Shown here one piece after another: positions 21,701 to 42,846 of a stretch of 64,000 bases of DNA; the first letter of the stretch is position 1; each line of letters starts with the position of its first letter. Below the pieces are notes generated by a model. That model was not told the DNA's origin. It worked only from the letters and a program-made list of their open reading frames with translations, and did no database searches. The stretch spans positions 1 to 64,000 of IMG/VR virus record IMGVR_UViG_3300044530_000662; one strand, written 5' to 3'. The position numbers and the translations under genes are program-made. This DNA is from a virus.

Positions 21701-22238
21701 TTCTTTCTACGGGTTTCCCAAAATATTCTACAGCATCTGTTTTAGAAATCTCATCTAATATAGAGTAGTTATTAGCAAAGTCATTTATGTTTACTAGACC
21801 TTCTAAAAACTCTTTATTATCAATCTTACCTTCCTGAAAATCAGTCATTAAGCTTTTAAAATATTTCTTAGCAGAAAGAGCTTTCTCAAATGAATCTTCT
21901 ATGAATATATTAATAGAATCAACACCATCTAACTCATTAACCATTTTAGTTAATCTAGCTAGTTGAGCCTCTTGTTCTTTTTGGTTCTTAAGTTTTTTTC
22001 TGCTGAGAGCATATTTCTTTTCTTCCAAAAATATTTTTACTTTTTGTAAGGCTTCACCAAAATTAGTAGGAGCTTCATCAGGAGTAATGTTTAAATCATC
22101 TTGAAGTATATCTTCAAACTCTTCATCTTCTTTTACTAGTCTGTTCCATTCTTCTAGGGCACGTTCTTCATTACCATTTTCTTGAGCAAGAATTCTTCTC
22201 CATTCATCACTACTTTTATTGGGACAACTTCCTAACAT
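18741..22238 (-). CDS. Large virion ejection/cargo protein, 1165 aa
   Basis: Helical protein downstream of the vRNAP; C-terminal hydrophobic helix VVAELTIIAALGALIMALTYMG. Confidence 0.7.
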   Translation of the reverse strand: MLGSCPNKSSDEWRRILAQENGNEERALEEWNRLVKEDEEFEDILQDDLNITPDEAPTNFGEALQKVKIFLEEKKYALSRKKLKNQKEQEAQLARLTKMVNELDGVDSINIFIEDSFEKALSAKKYFKSLMTDFQEGKIDNKEFLEGLVNINDFANNYSILDEISKTDAVEYFGKPVERKSLAEYTPQDKLTTALEIRNFIRTAYINQVTPLLAEVLVAQRNTRNIGSITEQIKTYQDRIQKIKTSTLSDKAKAIDIAAAQRELTKWQNMLLDKERMENILKMSLKDEGVFDYLLNPLISSEDSALALFAKMVKSQFEESRIDDIAERNEGVDKLKEFKAKSGRSINNVAEFNEGLFEEISVVRRDFKGKAIKEKGAVVIDKKMSFVQKFDLNLYGEAERQFYKDNPKPTLSTEASPEEVSLYDKQLKDWGKKRRQWYKQNRQPKSTEEILKIKNEKKAELDKGIITAEEYQEWLTKVESVDTKTGAKTFYGILSEPAEKYLSKKWLKLYDKEGNPISPEGEYHKYLTDKYLKDQELLPESQRMGYILPSIPMEDYERMYRKGVGNFVKTNLKDAVAIQSYDQSLYGTNLSKEGDDIDTRPYGRASLSGEKMTMLPVYYTQPMNADDVSVDLLKSVLQFGAMARKYNAMNEIHAEITAFRSIIGERETAVTTASGESILNIAAKKLGFDDYIRSNATPYSKMHLEAFLEMVVQGESQKAEKILGLELSKIVNTAMGISAVTTISMDVLKGAANNIQGNIQVAIEAAGGEYFNGKNLAKGAAKYWSTVGGALSDFGQLKPESWLGRLTEYYDPIQGTFKDEYGKNVSASVANKLFRINTLFFNQNFAEHEIQVKTMLALMDATKVIDRATGTEMTLLEAHEKYGPVLYEMTTDETGKKVKEYKVQIDVTNSEGVVERKDFDEKQRQDFMNTLHALNKKMHGVYNDFDKGVLQRHAGGRLLLMYRKHLYQGIKRRFKGVSFDEELGGATEGMYRVFWRTLIKDTYRYKTDIMKQWSTYSPFEKAQIRKVVAELTIIAALGALIMALTYMGTGDDGEEKEDLPYAYYFMMYQAIRMRSETFSYLSPADFWRIAKSPSAITGTIDRFVKFFDQFLFTWDEEKLTYQKDTGVWNKGDNKSWAYFLKLMGFSGYTFAPEEAVKSFKSTFVK

Positions 22239-25200
22239 AACTTATCAAGTATTTTTGTTATTTTATTATAATCTTCTTGTGTTTTAGCTTCTGCTAAATT
22301 ATTGATTATATCATTGATATCATAACCTTTAGTAGCTAATTGTTCTTCTATGTTAGTAGTAGCTCTTAAAGTGATAAGTCTATCAAGAGCTTTAGCTATA
22401 ACTTCAGGATCTACAGGTGAATCAAGACCTGGTTCAGTTTCCTGCTTACCTGTCTCCATATTAATATTTCTCACATATATTTCACCCGTTGTTCTATCTA
22501 CAAGATCATAGTTACCAAACTTGTTAAGCTTATACATTCTTATACCCTCTGTACCACTACTAAAATCTTTTGGTTGTACACCGCTCATTTCATGTACTAA
22601 CCAGGCATATACTTTCATGTCATACTCTATACTATCTATTGGAGCTGGACTTACTGGTGCTTTAGTAGGTTGAGTAGATGGTAACAAATCAGAAAGATAT
22701 CTATCTGTAACTATTACTTTGTTACTAGGAATTTTAGATACTGCATCTTCAATTTGTTTTTTCCATGTTACTGTATCATACTTAGCACCTCTTTCAGATA
22801 TTCTTTTTTGGAACTCTTCATTAGTAAGATTGATAACTTTATCAAAAACATCTGCATTATTTTTTAACAGATTAGTATTGGATGTAAATAGAATTTTATT
22901 TTCAGATAGAGCAACTGCCTTAACTTTATCAAAAAGATTTTGCATCATTTTATTATACTCAGTATTCCATTGTTGATCACCTCCATCTTTAACCTGATAT
23001 GTTGTTACATTATATTTATCAGCTATTTCTTTTACTTTAGTGTTTATTTCACTAGCATAATCATCATCTAGAGAAATGAATCTGTTGTCTTGATTTTTCT
23101 TTAAGAAACTTTTACCAATAGTTGGATGTCCCCAGATAATTTTATCTGTAGGTTCTATTTTAACTATAGCAGGTTGAGTAGATGGTTGAGAAGGAGCTTT
23201 AAATGTATTTTCATACACATCTCTAATAGCTTGTTTACCTGCTTCATTAATTTCTCTAGTGCCTATACCTGCAAATTTAGTTGTAAGTGTAGGGACATCA
23301 GATATACGGAATTTACCATCTTCCCAAGCAAACCATTTTTCATATGTTTGGTCAAACACATAAACTGGTTTTCCAAGATTGATAGCCATTTGTACAGCAT
23401 AACCTGTACCACCATCTACTGAATCTGTCTTAGATTTAACAGCATATCCTTTTTTGTTTTTATCCCCTGGAGTAAGAACATTTCCAATTGCAAACACGGC
23501 ATCTGCAGCTTTAGCTTGTAAATAATCTCTCCTTACTAAACCACCATTATAATAAATAGATTTACCATCTACTTTTTTATTTGGGTCATTCCAATCATAA
23601 GGTAAAGGATTTCTACCTAAATCTTTTACAGCTTTTTGATAAGCTGTTTCTACTTCTTGTACTTGATCTTGTGATAATTTTTGTAATGTTTGTGGTGTAT
23701 AATCAACTTGTTTACCTAATCCGTATTCTTTACCTACTTCTGCCCATACTGTATCTCCGCCTGTTGCAGCACCTGAATAATTAGTGTATCCTGATGCAAC
23801 ACCTGTAGGAGCTGGTGTAGGTGTAGTAGTTTCAGTAACAATTGATGGAGCTTGAGGCATACCTGCTGTTAAAGGCATAACTCTTCTCATAGTAATAGTT
23901 ATCCTATAAGAACCTTCAGGATATGTTTTACCATCAATCTTAGTTGTTAACTCTGGTAAAAAACTATCTTGAGGAGTAGGAAATGTTCTATGCCATACTT
24001 CTCTATTAATACCATCTACTCCAAATATATATCCTGAACCTGCTTCAAGATTTAACATAGCATTTTCTGGACCTAATCTTTCTATAGAAAAATTACCTTT
24101 ACCACCAATGTTAATTCCAATAACTGGATACTTAATAGCTGATTTACTTTCATCTACGTCATTATGAGAAGAGATAAATGTATCTTTTTCATAAAGATTT
24201 ATAATAGCACCATCATAGTTAGTCATATCTACTCCTGTAGCTTTCTGCATAAGCTCTCTAAATCTAGGTGTAATTTGTCCAAGAGATTGACCATTAACTG
24301 ATTGATTATAATAACCATACTTAGGATTTCTTTTTATTGGGTCGGGAATATTAACAGATGCTCTTCCAGGATTATTATTTGTATAATCCCATCTTAAACC
24401 AAGACCAATCATTTTACTACCTTCTGAAGATTTAAGACTTTTATTAGCTTGTTCTTCTAAATAAGGTTTAAGATAATTAAATAACTCAAGTTGTTCTTCT
24501 TTAGTAAGAGCTCCTTGATTTACATAAATACCTTCTTTAACTTGTTGACCTTTTGGTTTATTAGACTGACTTACAGGACCTGTAGATTTTTGTTCACCTT
24601 CAACTTTAGGAGCTACGTACATACCTGTTGAAAGGTTAGCATTTTCATAGTATACTTCTCCAGACTCTTGGTCTATCATGTCATAGTTGTCATATTTGTT
24701 TTTAATCCATATAGCTGATTGAGGCATACCAGATCTTTTACCAGTAGATGTATTATAAAATGCAGGGAATAAAGTTTTAGATGTAAAGAATCTTTCTGGT
24801 CTTTTACCTCCTGATTTTTTTACATAAGCATTAAATAAATCTACATCTTCCTGATTTATTAATCTTACTAAAACTTGATCTTCTCCTTCATCATCATCAA
24901 AGGTTTCTAATGTACCATCATTAGCTGGTTTAGATGCTTCTAATGTAGCTAATTCAGTATGTATGTATCCTTTTGGAGAAACAAGATAGTTTTTAAACTT
25001 ATCCATACTTACTACTGTATTGAATATACTATCAAGTGTTTCTTTATTTAGATAATTTGCAGTAAATGCTTTAGAAGCATTTGATATAATATTCTTATAC
25101 TTAATAGGATCCAATGCTTTAACAAAACCTAATCTTGTTTTACCAATACCGTTTTGATAGAACATAGCTAATGAGAATAAATCAAACATCTCTGATATTC

Positions 25201-28200
25201 TTTTATTATCACTTGCATTCTCTTCTGCAGTTTTATTTTTATTCTGAACTTTAGTAATACTTGGGTCAGATAAATTTCTAAGGTTGTTATAATAAACTGA
25301 TGCTAGTTCTCCCTGTGCTTCTTTCTGATTATTTAATGTTAGAACTTTAGCTCCATCTGTATTTGTACCAGGTGTTAATTGAGCTGTGATAGGATAATTA
25401 ATTTTAAGTGTGTCACCAAACTCATTAATTAAATTTAACAAAGAGTCAGAATAACTATACTTGGTTTTACCCATAATATATTTATTGTTATAACTACCTG
25501 CTAATGCTCTTTCTGATATGTAACTTTCATATGCATCACTAGCATTACCCATATTAACAACTCTTTTTAAGAAGTCACTATTATCTTCAAGAGACTCAAT
25601 TGGATTATTTACTCTGATTGATTCTCTAGCAATAACATATCTATAGTAACTTGCTAATGTTTGGAATGGATCATCTTTAAGTTTAAATGTATCCAAGCCT
25701 CTAGCTCCATAGTTATTTTCTGATGTACTTGATTCTAAATATGCTTTGTTTGCATAGTCAGTTTCAATTCTAAGAGTGTTGATTGCAATACCTTCTTCAA
25801 ATACTCCGGCATCTGTATCTAAATCATCTACAATTAACACAGGTCTATTATCTGTGTATGTATCAGGGATGTTTACTAACTCACCTTTCTCATTTGCAAA
25901 GTTAGATGTATAGTTTTGTAAGATAAAGTTTATTACTCCATTGTTAAACAAAGTACTAAATCTTTCTTGTCCATTTATACCTTTACCAAATGTTGGATTA
26001 TTTCTAATCTGAGATGCTTTAGACTGATCAACAAATGCATCACTGATGTATTTAGTAATTTCAGGATTAAGTCTTAAGTTAAACAAAGGCTCTGTTAAAT
26101 CTTTAATTAATTGATCTTGATTAAATGAAGATAAGACAGACTTATTAATTAATTTTTCTAAGAATTCTTGGTCAATTGATTTACTTTTTCTTAAAGCATC
26201 ATAAGCTTCCATTCTTTTAATTACCTGCTGTACTGTGGTAAGCTTACCAGTATCTGGAGAGAATGTTTGTTGTAAATCATTCATACCTTTAAACTGTCTT
26301 TCCAATTCAAGATAGTTCATAAACAATGTAAGAGCTTTCATTGTCTTATCATCCTTTACACCATCTTTTAGAGTTGTTGTAGAAACATCTCCTTTTGGTA
26401 AAAATTCTTTTGATAATACTTCAGTAGTAAATGCAAAGTTCTCTACACTGTTTATTAAAGTACTATAAGAATAGACTGTGGAGTCTTGGTTTAAACTAGG
26501 ATCCCATGATATTCTTTCAATATTTTGAGCAGCTAGTCCACCATTATTTAACTTTTTAATTAAATCTTCTAAGGTTGTTTCTGTAACACCAGAAACTTTT
26601 TTTACTTTATAATAGTACTTAGTATCTTCACCTTTAGCTTTTAAGTCATTAAGAACATATCTTAGTTTAGCAACATTGATTCTGTCATAGATAATATCTA
26701 AACTATCTTTGCTAAAATTTTTAAGTACTTTATTTATAATATTATTTGCTACACCACCTTTTTCTTGTCCACCAACTATTTTAGAATAAGCGCTTTCTTT
26801 TAATTTTTGTTTTTCAAAGTACTCAGCAATAAGAGGTTGATTTAAGAAAAAGAATATTTGTTCTTCATCAACACCAGCCTGAAGCATGTAACTAAATACA
26901 TCCATTGCTTCTGGAACTAGCTTTAATTCAAAAGGGAATGATTCTTTTGCTCTATCTAAAATACCTTGTAAAGCATGAGATGATACATCTGATATACGGG
27001 AACCTCTTTGAGTTCTCTCACCAGATAATGATATAACTTCTTTACCTTTAGCATTCTTAATTTTATTATGAGTAAATCTCATAACTACTGGTAATTCATA
27101 ACCTGTCTCTACAGTTTTATTTAATGCTTCAATGAAAGAAGAAGCTTTATATGTAGCAGGCATCTTAGCTCCTACAGATTTATATATAGGATGACTCTTA
27201 GTTAACTTAGCCATTATACCTAATGAAGCTTCTAGAGATAAGTTAGCATCATGTTTATACAAATTGTATGTAGCCTCTAATACTCTTGTAGGACTAATTA
27301 CAGTTTTTCTTTTACCGTTTTCATCAGCAGCAGAAAGCTTAGGTGCTTGACCATGAGTATTAGTATATCTGTTGTAACCTTTCTTGTTTTCTTCTAACTC
27401 AGGTACATATTTATCTACTAAGTATGTTCCGTTAGGTTTGGTTAAATATGCATAGTTCTCTGGTAACATTAAAATTTCTACAGCAGCATTTTTAAATCTA
27501 TTCTGTAAATATTTTTTCTGTTCAGCAAGCAAAGCTCTTGAAGAAGGTCTTCCTTTTATAGACTTATTAGCTTTTTCAAGTGCTTGAGTTTCTTTAAGAA
27601 GAGATTCAAATTTATCTACTCCTTTAGAAATAACCTTACCATCTCTATCTAAATTAGGAAAAGTCATAAATAACTTATCACCATCAAAGTCAGATCCAGC
27701 TTTAGCAACTATTTCTGTTGGTACAATAATACTATTACCAAATGCTTCAGGTAAGAAATGCCATACTGTTGCTGCTTCAATTGTATTAGTTGCATCATTA
27801 GGAATTCTTGGACCAAACATAGTAACAGCATCCTTATTGTCTTTTAACCATTTAGGATCTTTAATTACCTCATTAAGTCTATCAATAGTAGAGATTTTTT
27901 CTCCATCTGTATGCTTACCATTTAAGAGTTTAACAAACTCACCTTGTAAAGCAACAGCAACTTTCATCTCAGTACTTCTACCATTCTCATTATATCCATA
28001 AAAAGGAAGAGTATTTGTACCTAACCATTCTTTAATTTCTTTTGGATTAGTTAGAGTACTGTATTGAGAATCCCAAATACCATTAGTAAATGTACTTGGT
28101 GTTTGAACTAAAGGTTCCCCATTAGTTTTTTGTTTGATTAACCCATTCTGTAAAAAGCTCATGATAAGCTTTTCAACAGTGTCAGCTTCTGGATGTAATG

Positions 28201-31200
28201 ATAAATCCATTGCTAATTGATTATCATTATCAGTATTAAGAAGTCTGATTAAATGATCCGGAGTATCTCTGTTTTTTAATTCATCTCTGATAACTTCTAT
28301 AAACTGTGTTAAGTTACCTATGTATCTACCATCAACAAGTTCAAAACCAATTTCACTTAATAACTCTTCTTTTAATATTTCTGAGTAATCTTTTACTGCA
28401 GACAAATACTCATCAAGAACTGGCTTATTTTTTTCATTAATAAGACCTCCTTCTGAGTAAAGGTTGTCAAGTAAGATACCTCTAGTTTGTGTAGCTATAG
28501 GAAGAGAACCTTTAAAGTGCTCATTGATAACAGTTACTTCTTTTAAGTTGGCCATGTAAATAGGATTAACTGTAAAAGCAGTATCCTCTTTAATAGCTTT
28601 CTCATCTTTATTAGCAAAAATATTATCTATTTTACCATTAGTTGTTAGGTTAGCTCCTTTAGAACATGAGTCAAATGCTACATACTGAATGTTTTCTCTT
28701 AACATTTTCTTATGTAATGTATCTAACTCGGAACCTTCTTGTGCATTAACCCCTGGTATTAATGGTATAACAGCAAACTTATGCATTGCTCTTACTGGTA
28801 AGAGATTGTTTTCTAGTGCACCAAAGTAATGTAATTTATATACAGGAAAATAATCTTTTACTGTCTTAGGACTTATCTTTTCTCCTTTGATAATTCTTTG
28901 ATAAAGATTTTCTTGAGCAAGTGTCCAACCTCTTCCTGTTTTGTGCAATGTTCTATAGGCATCAAAAGTCATATAAGCCATACCATCACCTTCTTTCATT
29001 CCCATAAATGGCTTAATGTCTTTTTTAATAAGCTCATCTATAGTTTTAGAATCATAGGTTCCGGCATATTCTTTTTTCCATGCTTTAACCATATCATCTA
29101 AGTATAATGAATCTCTTACAGCATCTTTTATGACAGCTGTATTTAAAGTTTCACCATACATGAATTTATTCTCTTCAGATATTTCTGGCATGTTTAAGCT
29201 AGCATAGGTAACGTTATTGTAGTTAGTATTTATGAAATCTGAAATACCTTCATCAAAATTAAACCCAACACCATCTGAAGTTGAACCTGGAATACGCTTA
29301 GTCCAATCTTCTTTATCATGACCCCATTGTGCATGATCACCATACACAAGCATTGATGTCTCATACTTGTGAATAAAGTCATTGTATAAATAAGCTTTTA
29401 GTATCTTTTCAGTTAATGTCTTATCTTTCTTTAAATTATTAAGTGTATTGTTATCTAAACTTTCAGCTTTGTATCCCAGTTTTTCAAAAATAGACTTAGA
29501 CAAGAATGGCATTTTTTGGAAATACAGATTGTCTATTTCACCAGTTTTCTCATTAAAGTAGTCTATGATATCATCAGTTATCATTTTTCTTAATGGCTTA
29601 CCTCTTAAATAGTCTATCAAAGGAACATCTACTTGTTCATCAGCTAATTTATAAAGTTCATCTTTAGTTTCTTGTCTTAATACAGAATCAAAAGCTGAGA
29701 ATATTGAACCAGCAGGTACATCATTACCATTACCATCATTAACTAATTTGTTATATCCAGTAACTTTTAAATACTCTTCTTTGTTTGCTCCTCTGAATTT
29801 TTTAATTCTATCAAATTCACCCTGGATATATGGGAAAAAGTTATTACCAATAGCATAGATTTCACCTTCACTTCTTCCTTTAGAATCAGTTGTCATGAAC
29901 TTATCCATGTCTACATAAAGGTTTTTATCATCACCTTTTTTATAAAAACCTACTGAACTTCCTTCTACACCTCCTATAACTTTAATACCATAGGAGAATT
30001 TTTTCTCTGAGTGTCTTGGGAATTCAGCTACACCACCTAAAAGCATAGTATGTAACTCTTGTAAGAACTTAGACTGTGGGTCTAGTTCAGTAGTAGTATT
30101 ACCTTCTGCTTCTTCTACTTCTACATCTCTTCCATTTTTCTTTATTGTTTTTTTATTAGACATAGATGTACCATCTACAGCCATTAATAAAACACTTTTA
30201 CCTTCTATTTTTTTACCGTCTGCACCAAATAAACTTTTTATTATGTTTAATTGAAGTGTGTGAGGATTAATAGCAGGATTTAGATAAGACATATAACTAA
30301 ATCTTGGGTCTGTCCAAAGCTGATTCATTTCATCAACTTCATTTAATGCATATACATATGATGCTGCAGAACTCCAATTCATCTCTTGGTATCCAGTATT
30401 TCCATTTGCACGGATAACACCAGTAGTTGCAGAATCAAAACCATATTTAGATTGTAATTCAGCAAGTCTCTTTAACTGTGTAAGCTCTTTTACGGAACCT
30501 TTAAGATTAGACAGTACACCAACAGGAACAATATTTTTAAGAACATCAATTGGATTTTTCTTAAACATATCAAGATACTTGACTTTATCAGCTGTTAATG
30601 CTGGGTCACCTTCTTTTAGATTGTTAATTTCATTGAAGCCTTTAACAATATCAAATATATAAGGCAAACCATAATAATCAAAATTAGCTACAAGTTCCTT
30701 TTTAATATTATCATTGTTATCTAAATCAATAGCCATTGCTCTAGCAAAGTCTAATGCATCTTTTTCAGCTAGTTCTCCTTTAGTACTAAAGTCTTTTACT
30801 AGATTAGCTAAGTTTAATGTGGATACATTATCTTTAGACTTATTAATGTATGAGTTAGCTTGGGTGCTTTTAAATAAAGCCATCCACCTATTTAGAGTGT
30901 TGTCAATAGCAATAGAAGATTCTTTAACTCTGAAATCTATAGTTCTACTATCAGCATCATTGAATGCAAATAACTGCATGTACTTAACTCTAAATTTACC
31001 AAAGTCTTGCCAGAATCTTAAACTAACATCTATCTCATGTGTGTTTTTGATATTGCTTGGGTCCGGATATTTCTTTTCATATAATTGTTTAAGTTCAGGA
31101 AACTTCTCAGCTTCTTGTCCTAATTTTTCATATGCTTTGTATCTGTCTCTTTCTCCACCAATAGTTTTAGCTAGAATAGTAAATACTTTAGCAAAGTCTG

Positions 31201-34200
31201 CTCTTTCTTTAATACCAAATCTATCTGTTGGTGTAGTACCATCAGGATTAACTTTAAACAAACTTTTGATAAGATAATTAGTTTCTTTACTCATCATTTG
31301 CTGTAAAGACAATGTTCCTGTCTTAGGTTCAAATGCACCTGTGTCAGATTCAGTTTCATCTACAACATCACCATCCTGGTCAATCTCTTGTTTTGATTGG
31401 TTCTGTACTTCTATGTCAAATTTGTCTTTACCAATTTCATAGTCAGTATTTTCCATATGGTATTTTATAATACCATGTTTTTCATCACCCCAGTTAGCTA
31501 TTGTGTTTTGTAGAATTCTTATGTTATCTCTAACTAATTGTTGTTTCTCATCAACAAGAATATTCTTAGCATCTTTATTTTGTATAAGTTCAGTATATAC
31601 ATCAGCTTTACCTACTTTATAGTTCTCAAACTGTAATGGAGCATCTTCTAATTTAGATATGATAACAATATCAACAGGTCTTTCATCTTTAGTAATTTCT
31701 TTATGCTTGTAGAAATCACCAAGTATTTTAATACTGTCTTTATAGTCTTCTCCTCTTACTCTTTCACCACGTTTTAAAGATGGGTTTAGTTTACTAAAGT
31801 CATCTACCTGAGATGCTAAGAAGAAGTACTTGTCTTCTCCTTTTTTATTCTTCATTACAGCTACTGCATTATCAGAAATTTCTTTTAATGTAGTATATGT
31901 ATTAAAGTCTTTTTGACCTTCAACTTTTTCTAACTTATCTTTTTCTTGTTTAAGTATTTCTTGAAGTCTATTTTTTGTTTCACCATATAACCAAGTTCTT
32001 TTAGCTGGTTCAGTAAGCATTAATACACTTGCTGACTTAAGACCTTTTGTATGTAATTTTTTTTCAATATACTCAGGAGTTACTTTGTCTCCTGCTTTAA
32101 GACCTTCTTCAGCAATTTGTTTTCTTGTTTCAACAACTCTAGTATCATAGATATCATCAATTATTTCAGCCCAGATACCATCTATAGTATTAACCATTTG
32201 ACTACTATCTTGAGGACTTAAGGCATCTTCTTTTGTATTAACTACTTGTCTTGCTCCTCTATCTAATTCATATAACAAAGCATTATCAATACTAGCTTGG
32301 TAGCTGTTAAATCTACCAAGATATAAATTATCAAATAGCTCTTTAGCCATTGGAGAATTCATACTATCTATCTGAATATTTTGTTTCTTAAATTTATTAA
32401 GGTATTTGCCAAATAGTTGTTTTAAGAAGTTTAATATTCTTCTGAATATAGTATTTCTTTTTGGAGCATTTTGTTTTGCTTTACCAGTCTTAACATAATT
32501 TCTAAAGTCTTCAGCTAACATTTCTTCAAGTTGTCTAAAACTTTTATTAGCATGCGGTTGATTACCTTTAGCATCAGTATAATTCTGAAGTTCCGTGTAT
32601 AGCTCAATCTTTTGTTCCTTAGTTAAAAACAACTGAGAGAAAACATGCCACGCTTCATGGTATGCTGTAAGATTTTGGTAAAATGAACCGTTAGCCTTAT
32701 TCACTTTAATAGAACCCATTTTCTCATTTGTATCAGCTAAGACTGCACCGTTAACTATAAATGTGGCAAACACATCTGAGTTAACAATATTAGCTACATG
32801 CTCTAATGATATAAGGTCTCTTAAAGGTTTAAGCTCTTTACTGTTCCACCACTTTTTAGCTTGAAGTATTTTAACAGGATTTATAAAATCTTTACTATAA
32901 CCTTTTCTGTCAAATGAACCTGGTATAGAGTTTAAGTCTATCTTACCATTTGATTTAAATATCTCACTAACTGCAGAATTAGTACTTTCAGGAGCAGGTG
33001 CTTCAGGTTCAGTTAAGATTTGTACTATTTCTTCTTTCTTACTTTTAGGTGAAGGATTATGGTCTTTTGCATATGCTATTCTATCATAATACTCATCCTC
33101 TCTTTTTTGTGCTAGTCTTTCAGCTAAACTTCCCGCTGCATCTAATCTATTGTCATCATTACGGGATAAAGATAATTCTCTTTGTATACTAGCTGCATCA
33201 GATAAATCTATGTCACTTCTTCTTTCAATTGAAGGTGAGTCACCTTTTTTAATTATTTGACCTAGTGTACTTTCTGGCGTGGTGTAACTAACTGAATAGT
33301 TATAAAAACCAGGGTCTGCATTTATTATTTTTACTTCAATAGGAAGAGTACTTAAAAACTCAGTGTATGATTTATCAATAAATCTTGTACCATCTTCAGA
33401 TAATCTTTGATATGTTTTACCAAGCTTATCACTATCATATGACATGAACACAGCATTAGTCTGACCTTCTTTATTGTTTCTGTAACCACCATTCATTAAA
33501 ACATTAACAATTCTTTCTTTAATGCTTTTAATTTGTTCTGCTGATAGTTTTTTTAAATTAGTATCAGTTAATAAGTCTCCTTTTTCATTTACCGGATTCT
33601 TAAATTTAAAGTCTTTGTACTCATTAAAATATAAATACTTAAGGTCTTTATCAAAATTAAACTTATATTTTTTAGTAGTGCCTTCAGTATCTAATGAAGC
33701 TGGTAAGAATTGATCAACAAAAACTTTTTTAGCAGCTAATGGGATATTAGCATTAGTTAAAACTGAAGCTACTTCATCAGCAACATCTTTTGTAATTCTT
33801 GGTCTATCTAATGCAAACTTACTACCATTAATTATTATTGATGCTTCACCCTTTCTTAGTGTAGCTGTAGCTCTTGGAGCTGTCCTAATAGTTCTATATA
33901 CATCAGTAGTAATACCGGGAAATTTAGTAAGCTCATTCAAAAGAATATTTGTTGAACTTAAATTAGAAGGTACACCTGTAGTAATACCTGTAACTGGTAA
34001 TAGTTCTGCTTCATTCTTTAATGCTTTTTGTTGTAAGTCATACAACTCTTTCATTTGCTTTTGTTGCTCTGCTACAACTAAATCAAAGTATTCTCTCTTT
34101 GTTCCATCTATTTCTGGATTGTAAGTCATTTTTGCAAACTCTTCTGGAGAAAGAACTTGGTCTTCTTTATTATAGATATCTTTTACTGTATACTTACTTC

Positions 34201-35137: not shown

Positions 35138-35139
35138 GA

Positions 35140-38100
35140 TTATTTACAGGTTAAGTCTTTTAATAAATCATCCTCAGCAGCTTCTGAAGATTTAATTTTA
35201 TCGGCTTCAGCCATTAGTACATCAGTTTTATCTGCACTTTCTAATAAGGCATCTACACTATCTTCAGTTTGATTTACAAACTCTTGTTCTTCTTTAGTGA
35301 TTGGAGCTGTTTCAGGAGCTATTTCAGACCCTAATAAATCTGATTCAGTCTTGTAGTTTTTATTTAAATCATCCATAGTAACAGTAAGTTCATTTCCTTC
35401 ACTATCTTTAAGAGTAACCGTGTTATTTTTATTAATAGTTTGGACAGTAAATTTATCATTTTTTGAGTAAAGAGTCATACCTTTTTTGACAATAATTTTA
35501 TCTAATTGTTCTTCAGCATCAAATTCTTCAAGCTCTCCTTCAGTTACTTCTTGTTCAGGTATAAATTGTTCTTCTACATAACCTGTTGTGATTACTATAG
35601 CTTCACTTATACTATTAAGATCATTTATTTTATCCTGAATAGTTTTCTTAACATTATCATTTTTAGTTTTTTCTAATGTTCTTTCTAATGCATAAACTTC
35701 ATTCTCAATAATATCCAGTGCACGTTTAATATTACCTGCAGTTATTTCTTCTTGGGCTGTGTTTAAAGCAGTTGTGATAGCAGTATTTGATTGATTAACT
35801 TTTGTGCTAAACATCAAGTTAAAAATATCATTTTGATAATCTTTAAACTTCTTAGCTTCTGCAGTAGTATCACTCATGGCAGATAAATACTGAATTCTTT
35901 TTACAGCTTTATGTATTAATAAAGAGACATCACTTGTGTTATAGTTTTCTTCTACAATAGCTTGATATTCATCATCAGTTATGATACCTGATAGATGTAA
36001 TGTATCTGCTGCTATTAACTGACCCATTGTAGGTTTATATGATTTACCCTCAAACATTTCTTCATGTGTAGCAAATCTTTGAGCAAATGCTTTATCTTTT
36101 TTAAGTTGTTCTTGTATAAAAGCACTATCAGGACTAAGATCTATTTCATCAAAAGATATATCTGATTTAGTTTGAGCAAGTCTAGTTACTAATTTATCTA
36201 CATCATTTTTACTTTTTGTAGCAAGATTAGTATATTTAGTTACTATTTTATCAATTAAATTTTTACCTACAACTTTACCCAATGCTAATTGTTTTTCTTT
36301 CAGTAACTCTTTTAAAGCTTCTGGTACAGCAAGATTATTTACTTCTGCAAACTCATTGATTTTGTTTTCTATTTTTACTAATTCATTTTTGTTTTCATCA
36401 GTATCAGCATCTGTAATAGCTTGTAAATCAGTAGTGTAAGAATCAAATTCTTTTTTAGCTTTGTCTTTAAGACCTGGCATAAACTTAACAGTAGATGGCG
36501 GGAATAATATATCTAGTCTATCCTGTACAGAATTTCTATACAATGGAATAAACCATTCAGATGATTTTTCATTTGTTGGGTTCATTACTAATTCACCAAA
36601 CTCATTTCTTTTATAAGTACCATCTTCATTTTTAACAAACTCAATTTTATTGTAAACTCCTGGAGCAGACATGTTAGGCTGACCTGCAGATACCATTTGG
36701 TTTGTTTCTTTATTAGATGCTCTCTCTATAGGTAGTAAAGCTATACCAGCTACCGGATAATCAATCATTCTCTCAAGCATAGTTGCATATCCACCTTGTT
36801 GTAGTGTATACTCTTCTCTTTTAGTATAATTTAATTTCTTAGGATCCTTACTGTTCTTATTAAAGTTTTGCCATTTTCTTTGTTCACCAGACTTGATATC
36901 CACTATCATGATACCATTCTTAGTAGCAAGAAGTAAATCTATCTCTCCGGCAATTCTATCTTTTTTACCATCAGGTCTTGTAATATTAGAATCATAAACT
37001 ACTAAGTCTCTACCAATAAGATAGAACTCACCTGAATCAACTTTTTGTTTTAATTTAGTTAAGTAACCATTTAAACCAAACATGTCTTCATAAGCTTCTT
37101 GTGATAACTTAGCTGGATCAAACTTAGGTTTAACACCAGACTCTAAATAATCTTTAGCATCATCCACATAGTTACCAGCATCTCTACTGTCTTGATATGT
37201 TTCTTCCATGAAAGTATTCATGATAATATCAAATGTAGTATTGTTACTTAAAGCTTCATTTGTAATCTCTGCAGTAGGTTGTTTTGAAGAAGCTAGTTCT
37301 GCATCATATTCAATAGTAATAAAAGTAGAATCATCTGTTTTATTTTCTTTTTGAAACTTAGCAAAATCTAATTTTTTACCAAAGTCAGAGTTAATAAAAT
37401 CTTGAATAGCTTTATCTGTTTCTATAAAATCCGTTGCTAAAACTAAAGTTTCTCCTTCATTGAGAGTTATTGTAAAGTTATCTGTTTTAGGAGTACTACT
37501 AAAAGGTTTGCCATCTTTAATAGAAAACATATAACCACTTGTTGTAGCAACATCAGATAACCCATGTTGTTTTATTACTTTCCCATTTTTATCTACAACA
37601 AAAAATACTGTATCTCCTACTTTTTCTATTTTATAAGTATTTTTATTAATTTTTTCTGCTTTTAATGCAGTAGCTCCTGACCTAAATCCTTTTTTAATAC
37701 TTAAATCACCCTTTGTTTTAAAAGCAGTTAACATAGGTGTTATAAAAATAGAATTAGGTTCTGAAAAACCTTTAGATATTAAAAATTTAACACCATCTTC
37801 AGATGATATATTTGGATTTTTTAAATACTCTTCATAAACTAAATCAGTTAGTGTTTTTTCTTCTTTCCCCAATAACTTATTAATAACAACTTTAGAAGCT
37901 TGTGCTGGAGATAAGGTAATCATACCTTCCCCTCCCATACCATCAGCTAAAATAAAAATACCATTTTGTGTATCTACATAAACAGCATCCTCATTACCAT
38001 CAGTTTGTCCTTGCTTATTAGCAGTACCAAAAGTTACATTTCCAACTGTTTGAATATTAGGTTCATTTGTTTGTATTATATCAGCTTTAGTATCTGTAGT

Positions 38101-41100
38101 AGTAGTTGTTGTTGAAGGCAAACCTTTGATTTCTTTTTCAATTTGTGCTAACTCATTGAATATACTATTCTTCTGTTCAACTAATTGGTTTACTCTATTT
38201 TCATTACCAGCTTTTTCAGCCTTGATAATATCTTTATCTTTATTAGCTATTTGTGTTAATAACTTATCTTTCTGTTTCTCAAGTTTAATTTGAGCAGGAG
38301 ACATGCCAGAAAGATTTCTTAACTGAGTTTTTAAGTTCTTTAAAAAATCTTTATTAGTTCCAGGTAATTTATCAATGGCTAATAAACCATTTAAGCTGTC
38401 AATAAAGTCATTGATTGAATCTTCATTTAATCCTTTTTTAGCAATAGAATTATTAAATGCAGTTTCTACACCTTGTTTAGCAGCATATTCATATTTTTTA
38501 GGAAGAACCTCTTGTATAGCATTGGTCATCCTTCTATGGATTAAACCATTAACTCTATATGCTATCTCTCCTTTTTTAAGACCTGTTACAGAATCATCTT
38601 CAGTAAGCAAATACTTTTCTTCTACACCTTTCTGAGCAGTTAAAAGCTTTTGTATTTTTTTTACACCTTCTCTTACTTCTTCTGAGAATCCAGAATACTG
38701 TCTTCTTTGAATAATAGTATTAATATTCTTTAAGTCAGTCTCTAAATCTCTTAGTTCTTTTGTATTATCTACAGTCTCCTCATCCTCAAACTCATCATTA
38801 ACTTTAAGATTATTATCTAAAAGCTCAATCTTAGCATTGATAGCATCTCTGTATTTAATTAACTCAGGTAATGATAAATCTTTAGTGTTAATATCCGTGC
38901 CTTCATAAGTGAATGTTATATCACTTTTAGATACAGCAGGTTTATTGGCTTTGTTGTACTTGTCAAAGTATTTTTTATTCTCTGCAAGTCTATACCATTT
39001 TTCAAACTCAGCATCAGCAATGTTATCATCTCCATATATAGAATCCTGAACTTCTTGAGGTAAAGTAACTACGTACTTATCATAGAACTCATTGTATAAC
39101 ATTTGTTTAAATTCTACTAAGTCAGCCGTGTCTAAGTTAGAATCTTGTGTTATTTCTTCATAAGGTACTTCATCATCAATTGCTTTCATGTCTGCATTAT
39201 ATGCTTCCATTACCTCTGCAATTTTAACCTCATACCTATCCTTAATCTTTTTCACTTCAGACTCATCAGGTTTCTCTTCTAGTTTAAACCTTTTTGCCTC
39301 AGTAAATCTGGTTTTAATTTCACTAAGAATTACTGAAGCACCTTCAGCATTATCATATAGTAATTCACCATCTGTATTCTTGTAAAATACCATAGGTGCA
39401 ATAGCATCTTTGTCATTTACTTCTACATACTGATCATTCTCAAGTTGCTCATTGATTTCTTGTATGGTAACTGATTTGTTCCCACCTTTTCTTTTAATAT
39501 CATCAAGTTCAACTCTAGTAGGTGTAGTTGGTAATGCATCAATCTCTTCTTGCATTTTTCTATTTAACTCATCAATTTGTTCCTGATAAGTCTTTTTAAC
39601 TACTCCTGTTTTCTTTGGATTCATTTGAGCTTTTAACTGAGCTCTTTTCTCAAAGTATTCAGCATAGATTTTCTTATACTCTTCACTTCCTGCAGGATAT
39701 ACTTTTTTTGCTTTACCATCATAGATTTCAGATGGTGGAATATTCTTGTCTCCAAGATAATTCTCCATGTCTGTTTTGTTTAGATAAATTTGATTATCAG
39801 CTAGGGTATTCAAGAAAGCATTATCTCTTACCTTACCCATCTCAGAGTGAATAAGATCTTCAAAGTACTTTACTCTCTGAGCATTAAACTTTCTCATCCA
39901 TTCAACATTCTTTTGGACTACATCCATAAATGCTGCGGGATCATTAAACATGTCTATGTACTCAGCAAGAGCTCTTGACTCATGACCTAATTTATAGTAA
40001 TCAATAAGTGCTTCAAATCCTTCATCTGTATGTTCATCAAAGATTCTATCATCATTACTTTGAGCAACACCTTTTAGATAGTTATTATGTGCTTCTTTAA
40101 GTTTTTTAATATTCTCTACTTTAAGGTCTTCATTATCTAATGAACCTAGTATATCATCTAGCTTATCTGAAATTTCTTCAGCAGTAGGTTCTTTACCTGT
40201 TTCTTTTTGAAGCATCTCTTTAACACTCTTAGCATACTCAGCTCTATTAAAAAACTTATCAAAAGCTGTATGAGCTTCAGAATAGTTCTTTAGTAAATTA
40301 ATTTTGTTTTCTAATGCATTTACTTTAACACCTCTGTTCTCACCTTCTTTTTCTGTAGCCAATTCTCTCTCAAGCATTTTAACTTCATCAGAGATTCTTT
40401 CAGGTTGAAACAATAAAAGTTTATCAGTAGTGTTTAAACTTTTAAAGTTTTCATTGTTGTTATACTTGTTTTGAATTGCAGCTCTTCTACTTTTAGTATC
40501 ATCATAGTTTTCATGGAAGAAAGCCATATTTTCAATACCTCTATTCCAAGCTTTGTATAAGGTTAATTTAGCTTCATATTCAGGAGTTCCTTCTTCACCT
40601 AAGTTATTTAGATTTACAGGATTAGGATATTTTCTTTCAGCAGTATTAAAAATATTATTTACTCTTTCTATTCTTGCAATACCAGAATCAATTCTTCCTC
40701 TATATTTATCTACTTGGTCTTCTGAAATTTTTAATGCTTCAGCAAACTCTTTGTCATCCATTTCTTTGAAAGACTTCATTGTATCCATGAATAAACCAGA
40801 TGTTCCGGTTCTTCTCATAGTACCTACATGATTTATATATGCTTCTGTCTCAGCATCTAATCCTTCTTTTTTACTTGCTTTATCTCTAATCTTACTGATC
40901 ATATCCTGAGCACCAAGATTTAAAACTTTGTCAGACATGAAATCTTTCATGCTCACAGAGTTTAATTCATTTTTAAGATTCTCAGCAACAGACATCTGTG
41001 CTTCTTTCCATTTAGTAAAACCTTTTTTATCAAAAGTTCTATTCCAAGTAGAACTTAAAAATGGAATAGCACTATTTATTGGAGATGCCAAGGCACCCAT

Positions 41101-42846
41101 AAAGAAACCAGAAGCAAATGTTTCAGCACCTGTACTATTAAACTGATCTTTTAATGCATCAGAATAATAATCTTTCTTAGGTCTTAAGTTTGCTTTAATT
41201 ACTCCTTTAGAATATAATTGAGTTTGAAGAGTAGGACTTTTATAGCTATCAACATAATATCTTTCATTTGCTTGAGCAATAACTTCCTGTAAGTTTTCTT
41301 GAATACCTTCTGTAAAGTTTGATTTAAAATAACCTACTGTACCTAATACAGACTTGTAGATTGGATCTTTTGTCCAACCTTTAGCCCAAGTTCTTAATCC
41401 TGATTTTTGAAGTTCAAATTGTCTTGCTGCTTTATCATATACAACTTTGCCAAGTTTACCAAAATCTTTGGCTCCTTCTCTTGATGCTATTTCATAAATA
41501 TCATCTGTTGAGGATTTTAAAAAGTTTCTTAAGCCTCCTCTTGGTCCTGTAATGTTATTAAAGGTAATTGCATTTGATGCGTATATCAATGCTGTATTAG
41601 CTAATAAAGTTTCCATTGAAGCTTCCTTAGCTTGTTTCTCTAAATCAGCTTGTTCTTTATTACTAGGAGCCTCTCCTTTGGCCATATAAGCTTCATGATA
41701 TAGTTTATCATAGACACTGTTCTGTACCATCCCAGCTTCAAGTCTAGATTCAGCTAAAGCCATATTTATCTTTCTAACATCTCTATAAAATCCACCAGCT
41801 GTTTTAGATAATGCAGCTAAGTCAGTTATGTTATCTGTATTTTGAATTGTTTTAAAAGCATCTAAAGTATTTTCTAATGGATTTAAACCTTTACCCATTG
41901 CAGATAAAGTTTTATTAGAAGCAGCTGTATTCCAAAATTGTCTTGCAGTTTGTATACTATCAAAACTTTTTAAAGTGCTTTTTACTGCATTGTATCCGTT
42001 AATTGTTTTTTGTACTAAAGATAGCTTAGGAATTTTAGTAGCAATATTAGCAGTAGTTGCTATTAAACTTGCACCACCTGTTGGAGCAGCAAGTAAAGCA
42101 CCACCAATTTCTTCAAGTATTGCTTCACCCATGATACCAGCTGTATAGCCAAAATTCATCATAGCATTATTAGCAAAACCAAATACACCTCCTTTATTAG
42201 ACTGACCAATAGCTGCAGCTTCTTCATAAGCTTTAGCATCTTCTCTGTCTCCACTAGTAAAATCTCCAGTTAACATTTTAGCTAAACTCTTAGGTCCAGA
42301 CACAAAACCTCTTGTAAATAAAGGAACAAATGAATTAGTCATCATTCTAGAGAAGTCATCCCATCTGCTTGTTTGTGCATTAAAATTAGCCTCATTGTTT
42401 CTTAATGGGTGAAATCCAATTTTGTCAAATGTTTCTTGTCCATATGCAGCATATCTTTTATAAAAGTTATTACCATCTGGTCCGGCATTATAACTAAAGA
42501 TTTTTGCATAGTTATTTTTATTCTGATTAGTTTGAAAGAATGCATCAAGGTATTGACTTGTACTAGCTTTCTTTTGTTGAGGAGAAACTTTACTATAAGG
42601 TATGCTGGGATTATTAGCATTAGTTCTTACAACATTTTGTTCAATAGCTCTGTTAGGTCTATTAAGATTACTAACTTTAGGTAAAACAGGAAAGTAATTC
42701 TCTGGTTTAGGATAGTTAATCTTAGGGTCTCTAAGCATTTCACCCTCAAAAGGTGCTAATCCTTTTGAATCAACTATTGGACTATTAATACCACCATACT
42801 CCGGACCTAGCGGATCCAGTGAACTAAAAGGAGTTTCTTCTGCCAT
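35140..42846 (-). CDS. Giant virion ejection/cargo protein, 2568 aa, with PP2C-like phosphatase and PD-(D/E)XK nuclease domains
   Basis: Gly/Ala hydrophobic N-terminal segments, long helical body, phosphatase and nuclease motifs near the C-terminus. Confidence 0.8.
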   Translation of the reverse strand: MAEETPFSSLDPLGPEYGGINSPIVDSKGLAPFEGEMLRDPKINYPKPENYFPVLPKVSNLNRPNRAIEQNVVRTNANNPSIPYSKVSPQQKKASTSQYLDAFFQTNQNKNNYAKIFSYNAGPDGNNFYKRYAAYGQETFDKIGFHPLRNNEANFNAQTSRWDDFSRMMTNSFVPLFTRGFVSGPKSLAKMLTGDFTSGDREDAKAYEEAAAIGQSNKGGVFGFANNAMMNFGYTAGIMGEAILEEIGGALLAAPTGGASLIATTANIATKIPKLSLVQKTINGYNAVKSTLKSFDSIQTARQFWNTAASNKTLSAMGKGLNPLENTLDAFKTIQNTDNITDLAALSKTAGGFYRDVRKINMALAESRLEAGMVQNSVYDKLYHEAYMAKGEAPSNKEQADLEKQAKEASMETLLANTALIYASNAITFNNITGPRGGLRNFLKSSTDDIYEIASREGAKDFGKLGKVVYDKAARQFELQKSGLRTWAKGWTKDPIYKSVLGTVGYFKSNFTEGIQENLQEVIAQANERYYVDSYKSPTLQTQLYSKGVIKANLRPKKDYYSDALKDQFNSTGAETFASGFFMGALASPINSAIPFLSSTWNRTFDKKGFTKWKEAQMSVAENLKNELNSVSMKDFMSDKVLNLGAQDMISKIRDKASKKEGLDAETEAYINHVGTMRRTGTSGLFMDTMKSFKEMDDKEFAEALKISEDQVDKYRGRIDSGIARIERVNNIFNTAERKYPNPVNLNNLGEEGTPEYEAKLTLYKAWNRGIENMAFFHENYDDTKSRRAAIQNKYNNNENFKSLNTTDKLLLFQPERISDEVKMLERELATEKEGENRGVKVNALENKINLLKNYSEAHTAFDKFFNRAEYAKSVKEMLQKETGKEPTAEEISDKLDDILGSLDNEDLKVENIKKLKEAHNNYLKGVAQSNDDRIFDEHTDEGFEALIDYYKLGHESRALAEYIDMFNDPAAFMDVVQKNVEWMRKFNAQRVKYFEDLIHSEMGKVRDNAFLNTLADNQIYLNKTDMENYLGDKNIPPSEIYDGKAKKVYPAGSEEYKKIYAEYFEKRAQLKAQMNPKKTGVVKKTYQEQIDELNRKMQEEIDALPTTPTRVELDDIKRKGGNKSVTIQEINEQLENDQYVEVNDKDAIAPMVFYKNTDGELLYDNAEGASVILSEIKTRFTEAKRFKLEEKPDESEVKKIKDRYEVKIAEVMEAYNADMKAIDDEVPYEEITQDSNLDTADLVEFKQMLYNEFYDKYVVTLPQEVQDSIYGDDNIADAEFEKWYRLAENKKYFDKYNKANKPAVSKSDITFTYEGTDINTKDLSLPELIKYRDAINAKIELLDNNLKVNDEFEDEETVDNTKELRDLETDLKNINTIIQRRQYSGFSEEVREGVKKIQKLLTAQKGVEEKYLLTEDDSVTGLKKGEIAYRVNGLIHRRMTNAIQEVLPKKYEYAAKQGVETAFNNSIAKKGLNEDSINDFIDSLNGLLAIDKLPGTNKDFLKNLKTQLRNLSGMSPAQIKLEKQKDKLLTQIANKDKDIIKAEKAGNENRVNQLVEQKNSIFNELAQIEKEIKGLPSTTTTTTDTKADIIQTNEPNIQTVGNVTFGTANKQGQTDGNEDAVYVDTQNGIFILADGMGGEGMITLSPAQASKVVINKLLGKEEKTLTDLVYEEYLKNPNISSEDGVKFLISKGFSEPNSIFITPMLTAFKTKGDLSIKKGFRSGATALKAEKINKNTYKIEKVGDTVFFVVDKNGKVIKQHGLSDVATTSGYMFSIKDGKPFSSTPKTDNFTITLNEGETLVLATDFIETDKAIQDFINSDFGKKLDFAKFQKENKTDDSTFITIEYDAELASSKQPTAEITNEALSNNTTFDIIMNTFMEETYQDSRDAGNYVDDAKDYLESGVKPKFDPAKLSQEAYEDMFGLNGYLTKLKQKVDSGEFYLIGRDLVVYDSNITRPDGKKDRIAGEIDLLLATKNGIMIVDIKSGEQRKWQNFNKNSKDPKKLNYTKREEYTLQQGGYATMLERMIDYPVAGIALLPIERASNKETNQMVSAGQPNMSAPGVYNKIEFVKNEDGTYKRNEFGELVMNPTNEKSSEWFIPLYRNSVQDRLDILFPPSTVKFMPGLKDKAKKEFDSYTTDLQAITDADTDENKNELVKIENKINEFAEVNNLAVPEALKELLKEKQLALGKVVGKNLIDKIVTKYTNLATKSKNDVDKLVTRLAQTKSDISFDEIDLSPDSAFIQEQLKKDKAFAQRFATHEEMFEGKSYKPTMGQLIAADTLHLSGIITDDEYQAIVEENYNTSDVSLLIHKAVKRIQYLSAMSDTTAEAKKFKDYQNDIFNLMFSTKVNQSNTAITTALNTAQEEITAGNIKRALDIIENEVYALERTLEKTKNDNVKKTIQDKINDLNSISEAIVITTGYVEEQFIPEQEVTEGELEEFDAEEQLDKIIVKKGMTLYSKNDKFTVQTINKNNTVTLKDSEGNELTVTMDDLNKNYKTESDLLGSEIAPETAPITKEEQEFVNQTEDSVDALLESADKTDVLMAEADKIKSSEAAEDDLLKDLTCK
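36690..37200 (-). other. PD-(D/E)XK (RecB/Cas4-like) nuclease domain
   Basis: AGEIDLLLATKNGIMIVDIKSG and YTLQQGGYATML. Confidence 0.8.
37300..38060 (-). other. PP2C/PPM-family phosphatase domain
   Basis: NEDA, ILADGMGG, SGAT, KVGDT, LVLATDF, TDDSTFITI in canonical order. Confidence 0.85.

Follow-up and report, generated by a model that had tools for sequence, protein, structure and literature searches.

The window analysed here (bases 1-64000 of the 117,285-bp IMG/VR virus record IMGVR_UViG_3300044530_000662) covers the cargo/transcription block of a lake crAss-like phage. Phages of the crAss-like group rank with the most abundant viruses of Bacteroidota, both in the gut and environmentally, and to our knowledge next to nothing has been established about the means by which they evade host immunity. 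Two giant open reading frames (ORFs) in the window, encoding a virion-type RNA polymerase (RNAP) polyprotein, P0001, and its upstream neighbour, P0002, each combine a conserved core with an in-frame slot whose enzyme modules differ from one related phage to the next, and the comparison of relatives strongly supports the view that these slots are swappable. We consider it probable that both ORFs encode ejected cargo, in which a vertically inherited core carries a slot of modules that are swapped between phages and that act early in infection.

An earlier note on the same DNA had described the 4301-residue polymerase and its 2568-residue neighbour as carrying at least six passenger enzyme domains, four of them between linkers rich in Ser, Thr, Gln and Pro, in slots that can be exchanged. 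Both ORFs are present in a crAss-like cargo block, all six domains were found, and the AlkB, SLOG, kinase and PP2C domains are each flanked by such linkers (Table 1). These four occupy variable slots and can be regarded as passengers; the zincin-like and PD-(D/E)XK domains, in contrast, belong to the conserved cores. The exchange of slot contents was borne out, as the content of the slots varies far more than the core, the breakpoints lie in linkers and gain and loss are rampant on the core tree. Aligning relatives and mapping domain gain and loss at the linkers, the check that the note had proposed, clearly excludes an invariant architecture.

Turnover of the module slots

Within the nearer clade the tail of the polymerase consists of a cassette array enclosed by two copies of a bracket domain of ~100 residues, R1, the second of which runs into a helical C-terminal end. 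DNA breakpoints were mapped against a single near-identical metagenome contig (L092), whose polymerase is 98% identical to P0001. Identity at the DNA level is 98.0% up to residue 3519 and 97.1% from residue 4153 through the next gene, there is no similarity over residues 3520-4152, and both breakpoints fall within the outer linkers of the array. The entire AlkB-SLOG-kinase array has thus been replaced in L092, by NADAR and other modules. High-scoring segment pairs (HSPs) of high identity that link single modules to distant carriers also start and end in linkers. The best HSP of the kinase cassette, for example, is to the homolog P0083 (87% identity, rising to 96% over the module proper), the core of which is only ~34% identical to that of P0001.

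To describe this variation across the family, query segments were mapped onto 120 homologs of each protein (from 168 for P0001 and 328 for P0002), and the polymerase tails were decomposed by greedy jackhmmer masking, single-linkage clustering of linker-cut segments having merged everything into one cluster. The tails contain about 32 module families, arranged in 83 module orders in 107 proteins. Named modules in the slots of relatives are NADAR, ART-PolyVal (PF18760, which in the L042 tail scores 40.8 bits with a cut-off of 31.2, and which is listed too for P0033, P0063 and P0081), DUF7831, an AAA_33/Zeta-toxin-type kinase, cpYpsA and SF1 helicases. The correlation between the identity of modules and that of the cores carrying them is r=0.20 for AlkB, r=0.40 for SLOG and r=0.13 for module M01, against r=0.90 for the bracket domain, and 78 pairs of AlkB modules are at least 80% identical on cores that are at most 50% identical. 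A core tree of 99 leaves shows no fewer than 23 changes (gain or loss) for AlkB, 22 for SLOG and 14 for M01, compared with eight for the bracket domain. Judged by these comparisons, the bracket domain is inherited vertically and AlkB, SLOG and M01 are not.

The linkers have a recurrent joint. The peptide [ST]TQP[TSA] occurs 48 times in the polymerase tails and once in the cores, and in the P0002 family TQP occurs 17 times in slots and once in the rest of the proteins. In the window itself the kinase cassette is flanked by a direct repeat of 23 nt, the two copies of which are 91% identical with an exact core of 16 nt; the ACTCAACCT core recurs in linkers of several genomes.

P0002 comprises an N-terminal part of ~1570 residues, a slot, a PD-(D/E)XK nuclease and a C-terminal part. 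The slot is empty (20-25 residues) in 31 relatives, some of them 94% identical to the query, and filled in 86 relatives with 59 different contents. Its left border (residues 1571-1600, ~38050-38136 on the minus strand) is a T/P-rich stretch, after which many relatives have a (T)KADIE(K/R)RR-type motif regardless of the module behind it; this motif may mark either the conserved start of a helix or a joint for recombination. A single cassette pool for the two carriers was ruled out, as hidden Markov models of the 32 tail modules found no match in the 120 P0002 homologs.

It could be argued that the variable regions are neutral junk, the decaying remnants of captured genes in a disordered tail, given that many modules have no recognizable family and that 32 tail segments are singletons. 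The catalytic and ligand-binding residues of the modules, however, are invariant across 35-45 copies, the structural model of the kinase is confident, and no frame disruptions were seen. Furthermore, modules that are up to 96% identical in distant carriers point to recent transfer followed by retention. Decay of this kind is thus a very improbable explanation of the slots.

The modules also extend beyond this clade. The SLOG-plus-kinase segment has 1,487 homologs among 1.84 billion representative proteins, ranging from standalone proteins of 170 residues to giants of 5,700 residues. In Klebsiella phage Pylas (L094, NC_049444.1, 9001-9594) a SLOG module that is 39.8% identical (E 3e-33) occupies approximately residues 983-1180 of a T7-type virion RNAP, between the N-terminal region and the polymerase domain of this N4-like (Schitoviridae) enzyme, so that the SLOG passenger is used by two unrelated kinds of virion RNAP. 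The crAss phage cr113_1 (L095, NC_055896.1, CDS 31391-44377) has a gene of 4,328 residues with a SLOG module of ~180 residues near the C-terminus, which RefSeq names 'DprA-like DNA recombination-mediator protein'. Other giant crAss genes under the matches are annotated 'DNA helicase' or 'exonuclease V', and all three names are probably artefacts of annotation by a passenger domain.

Enzyme modules and conserved cores

The domains differ in the certainty with which they can be assigned. Sequence evidence makes the AlkB assignment secure: PF13532 scores 50.8 bits against a cut-off of 31.2, the iron triad H3658, D3660 and H3716 is kept in 33-35 of 35 modules, and R3745 and R3751 of the RxxxxxR motif are visible directly in the sequence. 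AlkB is present in 35 of the 107 tails and SLOG in 45. Confidence in the SLOG assignment is moderate. The motifs SGxAxGxD and GGT are invariant in all 45 modules, the homologs are named 'DprA-like' in RefSeq, and the model, which is of mixed confidence, has as its sole non-kinase fold match 3imk, a YpsA-type SLOG protein (Z 7.2, 109 residues, root-mean-square deviation (rmsd) 3.6). Pfam has no family for the SLOG module, and none was found in Pfam on standalone homologs of the SLOG or kinase modules.

The P-loop kinase, with a nucleoside monophosphate (NMP) kinase fold, is a good assignment that draws on its AlphaFold2 (AF2) model. Fold matches are to dephospho-CoA, shikimate and adenylate kinases at Z 8-9.1, with VIA Z of 9.1 for 8dv0 (152 residues aligned, rmsd 3.8) and 8.9 for 3vaa, and every top row of a Foldseek search is a small-molecule or nucleotide kinase (probability up to 0.99). 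This cassette is rare (4/107 tails), as is the PP2C-like module of the P0002 slot (4/120 homologs); single-protein scans of IMG/VR placed the kinase module at four loci and the PP2C module at one. The PP2C-like assignment has good, though partial, support at the sequence level. The matches to NCBIfam Stp1 (E 3e-5, N-terminal motifs) and Pfam PP2C_2 (E 0.08, C-terminal half) are both partial and sub-threshold but in the right order, ESM Atlas gives 0.96 with 18 of 30 matches to PP2C, and the motifs NED, DGMGG, ATD and DDS are present.

The bracket domain with the C-terminal end of the polymerase was modelled by AF2 with a predicted local distance difference test (pLDDT) score of 89 and matched no convincing fold, the best rows being three-helix bundles at Z of at most 6.6. 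In one clade the polymerase ORF stops after module M10, and the bracket/C-terminal domain is a separate ORF of ~309 residues directly downstream (L014 19430-20356, L017 10899-11804, L051 21436-22362, L069 21991-22917 and L086 21205-22134), which indicates that the C-terminal end of the carrier is separable as its own gene.

Nearly all of the mapped polymerase homologs have retained four regions, namely the N-terminal one, the zincin-like one, the core and that of the DFDGD motif. The zincin-like region is among the best-conserved parts of the family (40-75% identity). Its HEAWH motif (residues 827-831) is followed 41-45 residues downstream by Glu, and H827, E828, H831, E872 and E876 are invariant in 25-30 relatives; gut crAss genomes show local similarity around the HExxH region. 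The domain is assigned by motif only, ESM Atlas returning unnamed clusters and two weak rows with LPD families.

In P0002 the PD-(D/E)XK domain was found in 118 of the 120 homologs, with E1968, D1970, D1983 and K1985 invariant in all 118, and its identity falls alongside that of the core. The assignment is a good one on sequence criteria: Pfam NERD scores 22.8 bits against a cut-off of 22.1, PDDEXK_1 reaches E 2e-4, and the top row for its profile against the PDB is a PD-(D/E)XK protein (E 0.22). As both the zincin-like and the PD-(D/E)XK domains are near-universal in their families, and the identity of the latter follows the core, they are not add-ons, contrary to the earlier note.

P0001 appears to be a very divergent member of the crAss-type RNAP family. 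The core matches RNAP genes of crAss002, Rudgehvirus and IAS virus over residues ~2050-2580 (tblastn E 5e-10 to 2e-9), which are annotated 'putative RNAP catalytic subunit' or 'RNA polymerase'. The DFDGD motif (residues 2483-2487) corresponds to the metal-binding DxDxD of the beta'-like double-psi beta-barrel, and its aspartates D2483, D2485 and D2487 are invariant in 25 relatives. The fourth position of this motif is Gly, as in cellular RNAPs and in the majority of the aligned clade; crAss-like RNAPs were said in the phi14:2 paper (Drobysheva et al.) to carry Ile or Val there. Megablast of the polymerase gene against INPHARED phages found no match. The relationship to phi14:2 gp66 is indirect, by way of the RNAP genes of gut crAss phages. 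For P0002, tblastn of the core (residues 1-1570) against 50,697 phage records found no match, so no equivalence to crAss001 gp47/gp50 or phi14:2 gp65/gp67 can be drawn.

A weaker insertion site precedes the zincin-like region (P0001 residues 626-744, 32906-33262 on the minus strand) and is less variable than the tail slot. It spans 119 residues here and 42-361 in relatives, three of which have an M13 module in it, and the relative that is 98% identical has ~100 extra residues at this position.

Probable ejection, and possible timing and function, of the modules

The operon runs on the minus strand from a tail ring gene and a Crassvirus muzzle gene (matching PF25731 and PF24228; the muzzle gene, at 53892-59417, is PF25731), through four ORFs of 878, 998, 730 and 1029 residues, to P0002, P0001 and an ORF of 1165 residues. 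Six large ORFs, P0001 and P0002 among them, follow the muzzle gene. This order of muzzle and then large cargo genes is kept in 80 loci, in all of which P0002 is directly upstream of the polymerase. Mass spectrometry has detected the counterparts of the block in crAss001, gp45-gp50, in virions of that phage (Bayfield et al. 2023, PMC10172136), and the virion of phi14:2 contains gp65 (zincin-like), gp66 (RNAP) and gp67, which some phages encode as fusions (Drobysheva et al. 2020/2021).

The cargo proteins are also nearly devoid of cysteine, which makes up 0-0.23% of the cargo ORFs and 0.5-3.8% of the other ORFs in the window; for the polymerase and its partners in the chain the figure is 0.04-0.09%. 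This extends to the arrays: the tails of the 107 relatives contain five internal cysteines in 65,996 residues, and the AlkB, SLOG, NADAR and helicase modules contain none. In N4-like phages the suppression of cysteine in ejected proteins has been published, and it is attributed there to their passage through the periplasm. Taken together, this published mark of N4-like phages, the almost complete lack of cysteine here and the homology and shared gene order with proven virion proteins suggest that P0001 and P0002 are packaged and ejected, and that the modules are part of the ejected chain, since enzymes clipped off in the cytoplasm would lack a reason to lose every cysteine.

Most of the few cysteines that remain are placed at or near the ends of the chains. 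P0002 has one, at residue 2567 of 2568, and P0001 has three, at residues 5, 2158 and 4301, the last residue of the protein. The 80 loci follow one rule: a Cys closes the upstream protein, the polymerase bears one within positions 3-6 and another at its end, and the downstream protein bears one within positions 2-7. This pattern suggests head-to-tail links between consecutive cargo proteins.

To the observed anatomy, variability and breakpoints of these proteins, their conserved catalytic residues and their cysteine-free state, the following course of events would correspond. P0001 and P0002 would be enclosed in the capsid and threaded into the host cell either before the DNA or together with it. 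Each slot would contain a series of small, self-sufficient modules connected by S/T/P/Q linkers, in which an (S/T)TQP(T) joint is frequent, and co-infecting phages would swap single modules or whole arrays by recombination at the joints and in the conserved flanks. The modules would enter on the carrier and act on host proteins, nucleotides or nucleic acids; in this phage the delivery would comprise an AlkB demethylase, a SLOG nucleotide-binding or -processing domain, a kinase of the NMP-kinase fold and a PP2C Ser/Thr phosphatase. As the modules travel on the carrier, they could act before any phage gene expression. We infer the activity of the modules, their targets and their release by the zincin-like domain.

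An alternative would be that the giant ORFs are an expression device, in which the zincin or a prohead protease separates the modules at their linkers while still inside the producing cell, and the modules act late without being packaged. The recurrent (S/T)TQP(T) linkers offer possible cleavage sites, a conserved zincin-like domain is present within the same polypeptide, and it has been proposed that crAss-like phages process such polyproteins by proteolysis (Drobysheva et al.). The arrays, however, are enclosed by the polymerase core on one side and, on the other, by a C-terminal domain that is inherited vertically and has an invariant last Cys, which suggests that the whole chain stays together, and the modules are as free of cysteine as the cores of proven ejected type, for which a purely cytoplasmic enzyme would have no reason. 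Late action of unpackaged modules is thus improbable, and delivery on an ejected carrier remains the preferred reading. A more far-reaching version of that reading, which we hold to be speculative and rather unlikely, is that the cargo block is a protein-level analogue of the integron, with in-frame arrays in at least two carriers, each with its own pool, and with the (S/T)TQP(T) joint serving both as the point of recombination between co-infecting phages and as the site at which the zincin cleaves to release modules after injection.

What the modules do after entry is a separate matter. A role in counter-defence, which the earlier note had suggested, is plausible, and is made more so by the NADAR and ART-PolyVal modules in the slots of relatives. 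It could be argued instead that the modules have housekeeping duties in early transcription and the handling of the genome: AlkB would remove alkylation from the single-stranded template or from nascent RNA, nucleotides or RNA ends would be the substrates of the kinase and of SLOG, and the helicases of relatives would open DNA for an enzyme with a preference for single-stranded templates. Indeed single-stranded or denatured DNA is a much better template for phi14:2 gp66 than duplex DNA (Drobysheva et al.), many slot modules act on nucleic acids or nucleotides (AlkB, SF1 helicase and kinases), and AlkB and SLOG are the commonest tail modules. Housekeeping, however, predicts stable inheritance, whereas the modules have been repeatedly gained and lost and near-identical phages carry different sets. 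The slots also hold the protein-modifying ART-PolyVal and the ADP-ribose-removing NADAR, and PP2C is without an obvious role in transcription. We therefore regard the housekeeping explanation as unlikely, somewhat less so than late action of unpackaged modules.

It should be emphasized that several points weigh against early-acting, swapped cargo. The virion proteomics of the homologous block was carried out on phi14:2 and crAss001, which lie outside the clade of this phage. A phmmer search of P0001 and P0002 against the PDB, in which phi14:2 gp66 (6VR4) was included, gave no match and PHROGs has no family for either protein, which is why P0001 is to be seen as very divergent within the crAss RNAP family. 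A profile of 30 zincin-region sequences retrieved only chance-level rows from Pfam and the PDB. Only 6 of 47 distinct tails contain an exact repeat of at least 14 nt common to two linkers, so that recombination at the joints is not always driven by homology, and the conserved flanks are probably as important for recombination as the repeats. AlkB, the kinase and SLOG might just as well work on the template or transcripts of the polymerase itself, and the modules could be cleaved off before packaging.

Table 1. Features of the cargo block, with positions in the window, strand and basis of assignment.
Feature	Position	Strand	Basis
P0001, 4301-aa virion-type RNA polymerase polyprotein	22232..35137	-	ORF; 168 giant homologs; tblastn to crAss 'RNAP catalytic subunit' genes
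Zincin-like region, aa 745-1000; HEAWH at 32645-32659	32138..32905	-	conserved core; HExxH and downstream Glu
RNAP core, aa 1001-3400; DFDGD at 27677-27691	24938..32137	-	invariant Asp; crAss RNAP homology at aa ~2050-2580
Bracket domain R1 copy 1, aa 3410-3510	24608..24910	-	jackhmmer; twice per protein in 60 relatives
AlkB-type 2-oxoglutarate/Fe(II) dioxygenase cassette, aa 3537-3751	23885..24529	-	PF13532; Fe triad
SLOG-like cassette, aa 3786-3975	23213..23782	-	invariant motifs; fold match 3imk
Direct repeat copy in linker 3, left of kinase cassette	23164..23186	.	encodes PSTQP
P-loop NMP-kinase-fold cassette, aa 3998-4148	22694..23146	-	Walker A GHPTIGKS; AF2 pLDDT >90
Direct repeat copy in linker 4, right of kinase cassette	22660..22682	.	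partner 504 nt away
Bracket R1 copy 2 and helical C-terminal end with terminal Cys, aa 4170-4301	22235..22630	-	C4301 invariant
P0002, 2568-aa upstream cargo protein	35140..42846	-	ORF; 328 homologs
P0002 variable slot, aa 1571-1871	37234..38136	-	filled here by PP2C-like phosphatase
PP2C-like phosphatase, aa 1595-1852	37291-38064	-	NCBIfam, Pfam, ESM Atlas
PD-(D/E)XK nuclease domain, aa 1872-2100, conserved core	36547..37233	-	NERD; invariant E-x-D...D-x-K
1165-aa downstream cargo protein, third of the cysteine-poor chain	18741..22238	-	single Cys at position 5; position and N-terminal Cys conserved across loci

Relation to known phage proteins

P0001 has the make-up by which polyvalent proteins are recognized, with a zincin-like domain, an RNAP, AlkB, SLOG and a kinase in one ORF of a structural operon. 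Among the polyvalent proteins described previously from phages and conjugative elements are N4-type virion RNAPs fused to a zincin-like peptidase, ART, lysozyme and PBECR domains (Iyer et al. 2017, PMC5512222). Those proteins and the present ones are alike in being single huge polypeptides, here probably virion-associated, in which an early-acting core is joined to a zincin-like domain, putative in P0001, and to unrelated effectors predicted to be injected, and the two groups share the ART-PolyVal family, found in the slots of relatives, and SLOG, found in the N4-like RNAP of Pylas. In contrast with them, the carrier here is an unrelated, presumably two-barrel RNAP of crAss type (crAss is not mentioned in PMC5512222), the modules of this phage or its relatives (AlkB, SLOG, NMP-kinase fold, NADAR, DUF7831) form a defined array bracketed by a duplicated domain, and there is a second, adjoining carrier with its own slot and a separate module pool.

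The closest known blocks in other respects are gp65-gp67 of phi14:2 and gp47, gp49 and gp50 of crAss001, which share with the block described here the DxDxD motif, giant cargo genes after the muzzle gene and a zincin-like domain, putative in P0001, that is linked or fused to the RNAP. Those proteins were found in the virions of cultured phages. Sequence similarity is remote (tblastn E about 1e-9, none to 6VR4), the motif reads DFDGD in place of Ile or Val at the fourth position, and neither the AlkB-SLOG-kinase array of ~630 residues nor the PP2C insert is among the features described in the papers on these phages. AlkB domains are also embedded in the replicase polyproteins of plant RNA viruses, where an AlkB-type dioxygenase is similarly fused in frame to a viral polymerase polyprotein. 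The replicases, however, are made after entry, while the carrier here would be a pre-packaged DNA-dependent RNAP in which AlkB is one exchangeable cassette among about 30.

The 'large multidomain proteins' of the transcription block and the fusion of zincin domains to crAss RNAPs have already been described in the crAss literature. Cassette arrays, joints and turnover were not found in a literature search for which many subscription papers, including Yutin et al. 2018, were out of reach. The concept is thus the known polyvalent-protein strategy, and what is new is the second slotted carrier, with its separate pool, and the joint of (S/T)TQP(T) type that the two carriers share.

This study corrects the annotation of giant crAss genes, which have been named for a single passenger domain. 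There are about 30 module families in this clade alone, most of them unnamed. If the arrays do enter on the polymerase, they would constitute a large, self-updating catalogue of candidate early effectors, each of which can be cloned, and their clean joints would supply a natural rule by which phage particles could be designed to carry foreign enzymes.

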